DNA from: a virus
Taxonomy: Duplodnaviria > Heunggongvirae > Uroviricota > Caudoviricetes
DNA: 10,764 bases
Direction: 5' to 3' (one strand)
Virus record (IMG/VR): IMGVR_UViG_2541047501_000021
Coordinates: 1 to 10,764 of that record
In this document: positions 3,861 to 4,917 of the stretch, piece by piece
Layout: every line of letters starts with the position of its first letter
How positions within the stretch are numbered: the first letter of the stretch is position 1
The notes under the pieces: generated by a model
What the model saw: the letters and a program-made list of their open reading frames with translations, nothing else
The model's database searches: none
What the model was told of the DNA's origin: nothing
Made by a program: the position numbers and the translations under genes

Positions 3861-3885
3861 TTTGCCCTCCTCTAAAAACTATAAG

Positions 3886-3920
3886 CAAAGCCTACAATAA
3901 AAAACTGTATGCAATCAACA
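3886..3920. promoter_or_regulatory. Operator: perfect 13-bp inverted repeat AATAAAAAACTGT-N9-ACAGTTTTTTATT in the repressor/cro intergenic region, overlapping divergent promoter elements
   Basis: Left arm 3886-3898 is the exact reverse complement of right arm 3908-3920. A TAAAAT -10-like hexamer at 3957-3962 sits just before the repressor ATG; the minus strand reads TTGATT-N15-TTGTAG toward the cro-like gene. Confidence 0.6.
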
Positions 3921-3968
3921 GTTTTTTATTGTGATGCTTTTAACAGTATTTACCTGTAAAATTGAATA

Positions 3969-4370
3969 ATGATGAGCGCCCTAGAAGTATCTATGTACAG
4001 AATCAGCAAGCTTCTTCAGGAAACTGGATGGAGCCAGGCTGAGCTTGCCCGTAGAATTGGTGTGACACAACAAACTGTTCAACAATGGGTCAGCGGTAAG
4101 GCTACACCTAAAGCCTCAAGTTTGGATAAACTGGTTGAGGTTTCAGGGCATCCATTGCATTGGTTTTTATTGCCTCCTGAAGAGTGTGAGCAAATTTTCA
4201 CCCCTGACACGATGAAAATTGGTCCTCGCCAACGCGAACTGCTCCAAGCTTTTAGTGCGTTTCCTGAGGAAGACCAAGAAAAAATGCTTCAAGAAATCAA
4301 AGACAAGAAAAAATCAATGGAAGAAACCATTGCTAGGTGGCTGGCGGCACAAAAAAGCCGCCGGGCGTGA
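3969..4370 (+). CDS. paaR: XRE-family HTH repressor, DicA/cI-like; regulator of a three-component PaaR-PaaA-ParE type toxin-antitoxin operon
   Basis: 133-aa ORF with HTH WSQAELARRIGVTQQTVQQWVSG, overall DicA-like layout, divergent from the Cro-like gene and directly upstream of the PaaA-like/ParE pair. The start could instead be the ATG at 3972 or 3993. Confidence 0.8.
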   Translation: MMSALEVSMYRISKLLQETGWSQAELARRIGVTQQTVQQWVSGKATPKASSLDKLVEVSGHPLHWFLLPPEECEQIFTPDTMKIGPRQRELLQAFSAFPEEDQEKMLQEIKDKKKSMEETIARWLAAQKSRRA

Positions 4371-4397
4371 CCACAGTACAAGAAGAGGAGTTATGCC

Positions 4398-4589
4398 ATG
4401 GGTACAGCCCTTTCTCCGATAGTTTCAGAATTCGAAACTACCGAACAAGAAAACAGTTACAACGAATGGTTGCGCACTAAAGTAACGTCAAGCCTTGCAG
4501 ACACTCGCCCCGCAATTCCACATGACGAGGTAATGGCTGAAATGGAAAATCTTATTGCTCAAATTGCTGTAACTAACAAGAGCGAGTAA
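4398..4589 (+). CDS. paaA: PaaA-like antitoxin (small acidic antitoxin partner of ParE)
   Basis: 63-aa ORF containing LSPxVSEFET.EQENSYNEWLR.KV..SLAD.RPAIPHDEV, which matches my recollection of E. coli O157 PaaA2. GAGGAG lies 7 nt upstream of the ATG; its stop overlaps the toxin start (TAATG). Confidence 0.8.
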   Translation: MGTALSPIVSEFETTEQENSYNEWLRTKVTSSLADTRPAIPHDEVMAEMENLIAQIAVTNKSE

Positions 4590-4876
4590 TGTTACCCATT
4601 TTATGGCTACCGTCTGCTCGCGATGATTTGCGCCAGATCATAACTTACATCGCCAAGGAGAACCCACCGGCAGCACGTAGACTAAAAATACGCATTGAAA
4701 CATCGGTATTACCTCTATCTGAGCATCCGTACTTATATCCACCAAGCGAACGGGTTTCTGGATTGAGAGAGATCGTGACCCACCCTAACTACATAATCCT
4801 GTACAGAGTAGCTGCTTCAAGCATTGAGATTGTAAGCGTGACACATTCTCGGCGACAATTTCCCTTCTCTATCTGA
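4589..4876 (+). CDS. parE: ParE/RelE-superfamily toxin (ParE-like)
   Basis: 95-aa ORF with ParE-like motifs (LPILWLPSARDDLRQI, REIVTHPNYIILYRV, IEIVSVTHSRR), translationally coupled to the antitoxin and followed by an intrinsic terminator. Confidence 0.85.
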   Translation: MLPILWLPSARDDLRQIITYIAKENPPAARRLKIRIETSVLPLSEHPYLYPPSERVSGLREIVTHPNYIILYRVAASSIEIVSVTHSRRQFPFSI

Positions 4877-4894
4877 GTTGAACAATTTTCATAC

Positions 4895-4917
4895 TCCCTC
4901 TTTCGAGGGATTTTTTT
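4895..4917 (+). terminator. Rho-independent terminator after parE
   Basis: Stem TCCCTC (4895-4900), loop TTTC, stem GAGGGA (4905-4910), followed by T7 (4911-4917). Confidence 0.65.

Follow-up and report, generated by a model that had tools for sequence, protein, structure and literature searches.

The paaR-paaA-parE operon

We describe here the immunity region of a prophage on a stretch of viral DNA of 10,764 nucleotides (IMG/VR virus record IMGVR_UViG_2541047501_000021, positions 1 to 10,764), the whole of which is referred to below as the window. With a probability that we put at about 0.88, the window carries the immunity region of a defective, CP-933M-like lambdoid prophage of Escherichia coli O157:H7 that holds a paaR-paaA-parE operon, and this operon works by the mechanism proposed below. 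The identities of the genes and their synteny could be observed directly. The repressor gene paaR (3969-4370, + strand) diverges from a ydaS-like gene, the analogue of cro (3588-3860, - strand), across a palindromic operator with arms at 3894-3932, and is followed on its own strand by an antitoxin gene, paaA (4398-4589), and a toxin gene, parE (4589-4876), both with Pfam and PDB matches. An earlier note on this DNA had described the locus in these terms and had taken the repressor for the third component of a PaaR-PaaA-ParE type module. That assignment is borne out by a BLASTP match to PaaR2 (1e-20), by synteny and by identity with strain EDL933, and comparison of the three open reading frames (ORFs) with PaaR2, PaaA2 and ParE2, the paralogous proteins of prophage CP-933P, gave significant similarity for all of them (1e-20, 1.4e-20 and 3e-36, respectively).

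The antitoxin gene encodes a 63-aa protein in which the Pfam PaaA2 domain (5.6e-19) is the sole domain; NCBIfam model NF050103 (1.6e-26) and PDB entry 3zbe, which is PaaA2 of E. coli O157 (1.4e-20), were matched as well. Its ribosome-binding site (RBS), AGAGGAG at 4381-4387, ends 10 nt before the ATG and lies within the 27-bp gap between paaR and paaA. Neither Pfam nor NCBIfam gave a ribbon-helix-helix or ParD match for this protein, only PaaA2 and NF050103. A canonical ParD-ParE toxin-antitoxin (TA) system was considered and rejected, the antitoxin having no match to an N-terminal ribbon-helix-helix DNA-binding domain. The window protein is ~72% identical to crystallised PaaA2 and diverges from it in the C-terminal 18 aa. 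Hallez is said to have found, in 2010, cognate-specific neutralisation for both of the O157:H7 paralogs.

The start codon of parE overlaps the stop codon of paaA, and the TAATG overlap that the note had read there was found at 4587-4591. The 95-aa product (+ strand, as is that of paaA) matched Pfam ParE_toxin (2.9e-17; 63.5 bits against a 23-bit cut-off), and its residues 1-93 were aligned with PDB entry 5cw7_B, which is ParE2 (3e-36); it is ~67% identical to crystallised ParE2, a protein that induces SOS (PMC8630535). In the window, a ParE-superfamily toxin gene is preceded by an adjacent paaA and, upstream on the same strand, by a helix-turn-helix (HTH) gene homologous to PaaR2, which is the composition of a PaaR-PaaA-ParE module.

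Past parE we observed the clean intrinsic terminator that had been claimed for the operon: TCCCTC-TTTC-GAGGGA at 4895-4910, a hairpin with a 6-bp stem and a 4-nt loop, followed by seven T residues (4895-4917 in all, + strand), in the position of lambda t_imm. The 49-nt stretch that contains it (4877-4925) folds at -10 kcal/mol, with a z of -2.3. In a scan for the terminator pattern, shuffled sequence yielded equally many sites, and the evidence for this terminator is therefore its position, 19 nt past the parE stop codon, and not the count. Non-homologous GC hairpins with a T-run could be read at the same position, by eye and outside the terminator scan, in two of the related loci compared below (L002 and L003). 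A scan for the sigma-70 consensus found no promoter-like site on the + strand of 3500-5200, the 27-bp gap included. We infer that paaR, paaA and parE are read as one transcript, which PaaR would repress.

The paaR product, a putative immunity repressor analogous to CI and DicA, has 133 aa, with a variable N-terminal HTH and a conserved C-terminal segment of ~50 aa. It matched Pfam HTH_3 (2.3e-12) and, weakly, Phage_CI_repr (7.4e-05). By BLASTP it was 42% identical over 98 aa to the PaaR2-type protein of a locus in strain ATCC 25922 (L004), at 1e-20 and best in the C-terminal ~50 aa, and it was a full-length relative, with 28% identity, of DicA of Qin (6e-12). The NCBIfam DicA model (NF007257) scored 51.5 bits against a 101-bit cut-off, with an alignment covering 11-130 of the 133 aa; by this curated threshold, the window PaaR is a relative of DicA and not a member of the DicA subfamily. 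A PDB search with the window repressor returned generic HTH domains only, the best being that of 434 repressor (3e-05), and no PaaR2 structure. Peptidase_S24, the autocleavage domain of SOS-inducible repressors such as lambda CI and LexA, did not occur among the 25 best of 35 Pfam matches (E<=0.1), which took in far weaker ones, and alignment identified the C-terminal domain of the window PaaR as a helical segment of the DicA/PaaR type. The S24 motif is also absent from PaaR2 (PMC8630535).

Operators and candidate promoters

The OR-like control region between the divergent genes (3861-3968, 108 bp) contains three 15-bp operators of the form ACAGT-N5-AyTGT, located at 3894-3908, at 3918-3932 and, in a weaker version, at 3943-3957, with a spacing of 24-25 bp start to start. 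The palindrome consists of two inverted copies of one near-palindromic 15-bp site, ACAGTTTTTTATTGT, such that its arms, ACAATAAAAAACTGT (3894-3908) and ACAGTTTTTTATTGT (3918-3932), are 100% complementary. We observed two OL copies of the same 15-mer directly past the terminator, at 4928-4942 (1 mismatch) and 4953-4967 (exact). These five sites account for all 10 strand matches of the degenerate pattern in the 10.8 kb; 1.1 would be expected, and none of 200 shuffled sequences reached 10. A divergent gene pair with equally spaced operators, and a second operator set beyond the repressor operon, are features of the CP-933P-type switch, and for the window allele we predict that these sites function as operators and are occupied.

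The minus strand of OR matches the plus strand of OL nearly base for base across two operators, and the alignment takes in -35-like elements (TTGAtt and TTGACA, respectively) and -10-like elements (TAGgct and TAGatt). Elements placed in this way would be expected of a PR promoter that reads toward ydaS and of a PL promoter that reads toward ydfA-dicB. The candidate PR for ydaS-ydaT (3889-3918, - strand) would consist of a -35 element TTGATT (3918-3913), an 18-nt spacer that holds the operator at 3894-3908, and a -10 element TAGGCT (3894-3889). The putative PL, within an OL/PL-like region at 4928-4972 (+ strand) facing ydfA-ydfB-...-dicB, would have TTGACA (4942-4947), a 19-nt spacer and TAGATT (4967-4972). 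A candidate PRM for the repressor operon (3957-3971, + strand) is suggested by the sequence TAAAAT (3957-3962), a -10-like element which is followed after 6 nt by the paaR ATG (3969); no Shine-Dalgarno sequence is present. Locus L004 has the same geometry as this putative PRM, GATAAT followed by 6 nt and an ATG, and its PaaR begins with MQKKE, the N-terminus determined experimentally for PaaR2 (PMC8630535). For PaaR2, 5' RACE and N-terminal sequencing have demonstrated that translation is leaderless (PMC8630535), and by analogy the paaR mRNA of the window is probably leaderless.

In strain UTME-14 (L002, 2490-2503), the annotated paaR start is preceded, 9 nt upstream, by an in-frame ATG with which the order of -10 element, 6 nt and ATG, the geometry of the window and of the PaaR2 locus, is restored. 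Possibly, the RefSeq paaR start in this strain is three codons too short.

The ydaS-like gene, whose start lies 108 bp from divergent paaR and which overlaps the ydaT-like gene, has a strong Shine-Dalgarno sequence (GAGGAGGG) upstream and encodes a 90-aa Cro analogue with matches to Pfam YdaS_toxin (8e-10) and to HTH models; RefSeq names it "transcriptional regulator". The ydaT-like gene (3179-3604, - strand), for a CII analogue of 141 aa (Pfam YdaT_toxin, 1.2e-09), is a "toxin YdaT family protein" in RefSeq, and its product is 86% identical to YdaT of the PaaR2-type locus L004. YdaT of CP-933P is a regulator and was shown not to be a toxin (PMC8630535). The sequence TTGATT-N6-AATCAA, an inverted repeat of the OM type, has a single exact match within the window, at 3594-3611; it is located at the ydaS/ydaT junction, where it marks a PRE-like region. 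The same repeat at the end of ydaS is the operator that was footprinted for CP-933P YdaT (PMC9986795). With ydaT after ydaS and an exact YdaT operator at their junction, the window has a further feature of the CP-933P-type switch, and it is plausible that this operator marks a second promoter feeding paaR-paaA-parE.

Related loci and source genomes

The gene order ydaT-ydaS<>R-A-E-ydfA...dicB, in which R-A-E denotes paaR-paaA-parE, is common to four E. coli loci, the window and three more (L002, L003 and L004), with four repressor alleles. Phage Evi, the only record of the phage collection with this ParE, has the same ydaT-ydaS<>R-A-E order and other genes past the toxin. E. coli prophages commonly carry the module, and sequenced free phages hardly ever do. 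Among the four E. coli loci, identities were 79-88% for YdaT, 62-84% for PaaA and 63-84% for ParE, and 26-65% overall for the repressors and 17-46% for YdaS. Behind unrelated or divergent HTH domains, the repressors have a common C-terminal segment, LLQxFxAFPEEDQ...ARWLAAQKxRRA, a weaker version of which is found in DicA of Qin. This domain of ~50 residues is kept across four otherwise unrelated alleles, always alongside paaA-parE. Downstream of parE, each of the four loci repeats the motif found in its own OR, and this motif is a different one in L002, L003 and L004. These repeats fit a co-variation of operator and repressor, by which differing immunity specificities would surround a common TA core.

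A search of representative genomes gave only distant two-gene PaaA-ParE pairs (47-60% ParE identity), in Pollutimonas, Herbaspirillum, Oxalobacteraceae and other metagenome-assembled genomes, and none of these had a PaaR-like gene directly upstream. Such PaaR-free pairs outside Enterobacteria fit the published idea that the TA cassette was captured by an immunity operon.

Positions 3100-5400 of the window are 100% identical to 1254263-1256563 of EDL933 (NZ_CP008957.1), and many other O157:H7 genomes are likewise identical. Outside the region of the finding, identity with EDL933 was 98.7% over 1-6870, and the recE/int/nleG end differs from 7227 onward. RefSeq annotates the identical EDL933 stretch, in order, as YdaT-family protein, transcriptional regulator, HTH protein, RelB-family antitoxin, RelE/ParE toxin, ydfA, ydfB, dicB, exonuclease and integrase, and this annotation is already present in hundreds of O157:H7 genomes. 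Segment 3861-4917 was matched in 833 of 5426 complete E. coli genomes, 518 of which cover most of it; the PaaR2-type locus was matched in 633 genomes.

In O157:H7 genomes there are two places for the paaR-paaA-parE locus. The PaaR2/PaaA2/ParE2 type, represented here by ATCC 25922 locus L004 (whose PaaA matches the PDB PaaA2 fragment with 100% identity), is the other of the two. Because PaaA and ParE of the window are 72% and 67% identical to crystallised PaaA2 and ParE2, the window holds the other paralog. EDL933 was not among the 60 matches listed when the PaaR2-type locus was used to search for a second EDL933 copy. In the passages of PMC8630535 and PMC3141249 that cite it, Hallez et al. 2010 (Mol Microbiol 76:719) is credited with the first description of the three-component paaR-paaA-parE system and with two paralogous systems in O157:H7, and a sentence of PMC8630535 that refers to Hallez et al. 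places a homologue of paaR2-paaA2-parE2 on CP-933M of the same strain. By elimination, and from that one literature sentence, the window copy would be paaR1-paaA1-parE1 on CP-933M.

Proposed mechanism and alternatives

The CP-933P system has been studied experimentally (Jurenas et al. 2021, PMC8630535). Its TA genes are embedded in a bistable switch like that of lambda CI, Cro and CII, with PaaR2 as the CI analogue, YdaS as the Cro analogue and YdaT as the CII analogue, and are co-transcribed from a PRM-like promoter in an operon that PaaR2 controls. Footprints of PaaR2 and YdaS overlap on operators between the divergent genes, with electrophoretic mobility shift and single-cell data in addition, and each of the two proteins represses PRM, PR and a PL-like promoter (PL933P), which lies beyond the TA and has the same operators; a PRE-like promoter, located between ydaS and ydaT and activated by YdaT, feeds the TA operon. 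The locus stabilises a mini-F plasmid, that is, it confers post-segregational killing or addiction, and PaaA2 is degraded by ClpAP and ClpXP. The TA operon is transcribed appreciably in both states of the switch, SOS-positive cells are equally rare in them (0.88% ydaST-on vs 0.95% RAE2-on), and the toxin is released only upon loss of the whole locus. In the view of Jurenas et al., the immunity region acquired the TA by insertion (PMC8630535), and Prolic-Kalinsek et al. 2023 reported that paaA2-parE2 replace rexA-rexB (PMC9986795).

We propose that in the window PaaR, a CI/DicA-type repressor, would be transcribed from a PRM-like promoter together with PaaA and ParE and would probably be translated from a leaderless mRNA; PaaA and ParE would occupy the place of lambda rexA-rexB, and the transcript would end at 4895-4917. 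Sites of the form ACAGT-N5-AyTGT, three in OR and two in OL/PL, would be bound by PaaR and by YdaS, the Cro analogue. With operators at both OR and OL, PaaR would therefore shut off ydaS-ydaT rightward and ydfA-dicB leftward, and it would also regulate the operon in which it is encoded, the TA included. YdaT would bind 3594-3611 and could drive a second, PRE-like transcript into paaR-paaA-parE, so that antitoxin would still be made in the ydaST-on state. PaaA, a protein with no DNA-binding domain matched in Pfam or NCBIfam, would only sequester ParE and, by analogy with its paralog, would be labile to ClpAP and ClpXP. The net effect for the window allele would be addiction: upon loss or replacement of the immunity region, the cell would be poisoned by stable ParE, and the immunity region of a prophage no longer able to excise or grow would thereby be stabilised.

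The earlier note had gone further and suggested that loss of immunity transcription would also cut the supply of antitoxin. Extended to a full mechanism, this would make the operon a dead-man switch, in which leaving the repressed state stops PRM, labile PaaA decays and ParE is freed, and induction is punished or blocked. The placement of PaaA and ParE in the repressor operon, behind a 27-bp gap and with no separate promoter-like site in the scan, is as this proposal would have it, and so are the proteolysis of PaaA2 and the addiction seen when the paralogous locus is lost with its plasmid (PMC8630535). However, we consider it unlikely. The TA reporter of CP-933P is on in both the RAE2-on and the ydaST-on states, with SOS-positive cells equally rare (0.95% vs 0.88%, as given above), and the YdaT-activated PRE of the paralog reads into the operon; a YdaT-fed second promoter is plausible here too, the gene and the exact operator being conserved in the window. 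The claim about antitoxin supply found no support. Also, since the repressor has no S24 autocleavage domain, one would not expect an SOS-triggered collapse of immunity. The conserved C-terminal domain of PaaR raises another thought, namely that it is more than a module for oligomerisation and forms the contact for PaaA-ParE as co-repressor, such that the state of the TA feeds into the lysis-lysogeny decision and a flip of the window allele, unlike one of CP-933P, might release ParE. We regard this as a decidedly doubtful conjecture.

The question of whether the pair belongs to the repressor operon at all can also be answered differently: paaA-parE could be an independent two-gene cassette, with its own promoter and autoregulation, brought beside the repressor by insertion, and PaaR would then not be a third component. 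That such pairs can exist without PaaR is shown by those in other bacteria, and an insertion is what Jurenas et al. proposed (PMC8630535). Yet the 63 residues of PaaA amount to the toxin-binding PaaA2 domain only, the gap upstream has no promoter-like match, PaaR2 is reported to control the paralogous operon (PMC8630535), and the linkage to a PaaR with a conserved C-terminal domain holds across four alleles and phage Evi; an autonomous cassette is thus very improbable. Many prophage TA systems act in defence, and the pair might be cargo for phage exclusion, serving mainly in abortive-infection defence of the lysogen in the manner of rexA-rexB rather than in addiction. A position like that of rexAB and a transcript shared with the repressor during lysogeny (PMC9986795) would suit that role, which is compatible with the mechanism we favour. 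Against it stand the outcome of a PADLOC-DB search, in which neither PaaA nor ParE had a match, the literature on the CP-933P system, in which no defence phenotype is reported, and the addiction demonstrated for the paralog (PMC8630535), and we give defence as the main function little credence.

Our preferred reading, an immunity region of CP-933M type with an addictive TA in its repressor operon, has several observations to contend with. The candidate PR, PRM and PL were not called by the sigma-70 consensus scan, and the spacer of the putative PL is 19 nt; we retained these candidates because OR and OL align and because the mapped PaaR2 promoter has the same geometry. ParE2 induces SOS and yet is reported neither to bind GyrA59 nor to inhibit gyrase, which are conflicting signs as to what this branch of ParE toxins attacks. 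The record for the locus carries no mapped prophage name that would give the label CP-933M, and the collection contained no collinear complete E. coli genome covering at least 80% of the window.

The downstream operon and the remainder of the prophage

The unit lies between the repressor and the promoter proposed for the dicB operon, which in Qin directly follows dicA (167 bp), as had been pointed out before. The early-left operon (5154-6954, + strand) comprises ydfA (5154-5309), ydfB (5311-5439), an ORF at 5451-5840, a DicF-like region (~6549-6587) and dicB (6766-6954). Pfam matches to DUF1391 (3.3e-28) and DicB (1.4e-36), RefSeq annotation of EDL933 and alignment with Qin agree on these assignments. 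The DicF-like region at 6549-6587 is shortened, ~17 nt of its middle being missing relative to DicF of Qin and to the EDL933 CP-933M copy; by manual alignment, it has kept the TTTCTGGTGA seed at its 5' end and also the terminal hairpin, GGCGG...CCGCC with a T-run. With the gathering threshold applied, Rfam matched nothing in the window; at E<=1 its one match, to STnc100 at 6580-6798 (29.5 bits vs a gathering score of 47, E 6e-04), stayed below that threshold and overlapped the start region of dicB. DicF was thus detected in neither search.

Farther along, 7232-9009 contains a 414-aa ORF with a partial exonuclease VIII (RecE) domain and then a 183-aa C-terminal fragment of a tyrosine integrase. 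In most O157:H7 strains the recE-int region has ~2.3 kb more, the excisionase included, and the window carries a deletion by which recE is fused to int, an arrangement also found in strain Z887; the prophage is therefore probably locked in place. Just outside the truncated integrase are two genes for type III effectors of the NleG family (9591-10232 and 10314-10748, - strand; Pfam T3SS_NleG, 1e-43 and 1e-47), which are typical effector cargo at the ends of lambdoid prophages of enterohaemorrhagic E. coli. Positions 1-7225 resemble one prophage (98.8% identity) and 6860-10764 the end of a different O157:H7 prophage (99.5%). As judged from these alignments, the window would represent a recombinant prophage arrangement or a strain outside the collection.

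On the other side of the immunity region, the replication region contains an ORF at 1347-2549 (- strand) for a 400-aa protein with an acidic QEQEQEQEKEQEQ repeat and no Pfam match at E<=0.001; the CP-933M counterpart in EDL933 has 1092 nt and 363 aa and is annotated as "hypothetical protein". It is followed by a gene for an IstB/DnaC-like ATPase (594-1340).

Comparison with known systems

The module itself has been known since 2010, and the embedding of its paralog in a lambda-like bistable switch since 2021; the published interpretation was reached in the earlier note from the sequence alone. What is new here is confined to the predicted operators and promoters of PaaR1-type immunity and to the modular repressor, in which a variable HTH is joined to a conserved C-terminal domain. 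The predicted operator, ACAGT-N5-AyTGT with three copies in OR and two in OL, can be used to test for heteroimmunity between the two O157:H7 prophages.

The locus has the same gene order and products as paaR1-paaA1-parE1 of CP-933M in EDL933, and within the region of the finding there is no difference between the two. The architecture ydaT-ydaS<>paaR-paaA-parE, followed by a terminator region and OL/PL, is also that of paaR2-paaA2-parE2 in CP-933P, with which the window has in common an identical YdaT operator and the conserved C-terminal ~50 aa of PaaR. In contrast, the N-terminal HTH of PaaR and YdaS are unrelated in the two prophages (34% global identity for PaaR and 17% for YdaS), and the operators also differ, being ACAGTTTTTTATTGT in the window and repeats of the GTTTAGTAA type in CP-933P. 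As the PaaR HTH, YdaS and the operators all differ from those of CP-933P, the two prophages should therefore have different immunity specificities.

Like lambda cI-rexA-rexB, the window has a repressor gene with two accessory genes, divergent from a cro-cII-like pair, and operators on both flanks of the repressor operon, set 24-25 bp apart start to start. Its repressor mRNA would also be leaderless, as was shown for that of PaaR2. It differs from lambda in that, beyond the HTH fold, there is no relatedness to CI, the TA pair stands in place of RexAB, and a POU-type YdaT in place of CII. Finally, the window resembles the dicA-dicC region of Qin in its DicA-related repressor and in the same ydfA-ydfB-...-dicB operon, with homology resuming at position 5117 of the window; Qin of K-12, however, has no TA, and the genes ydfA-ydfB-ydfC-dicF-dicB begin 167 bp past its dicA.

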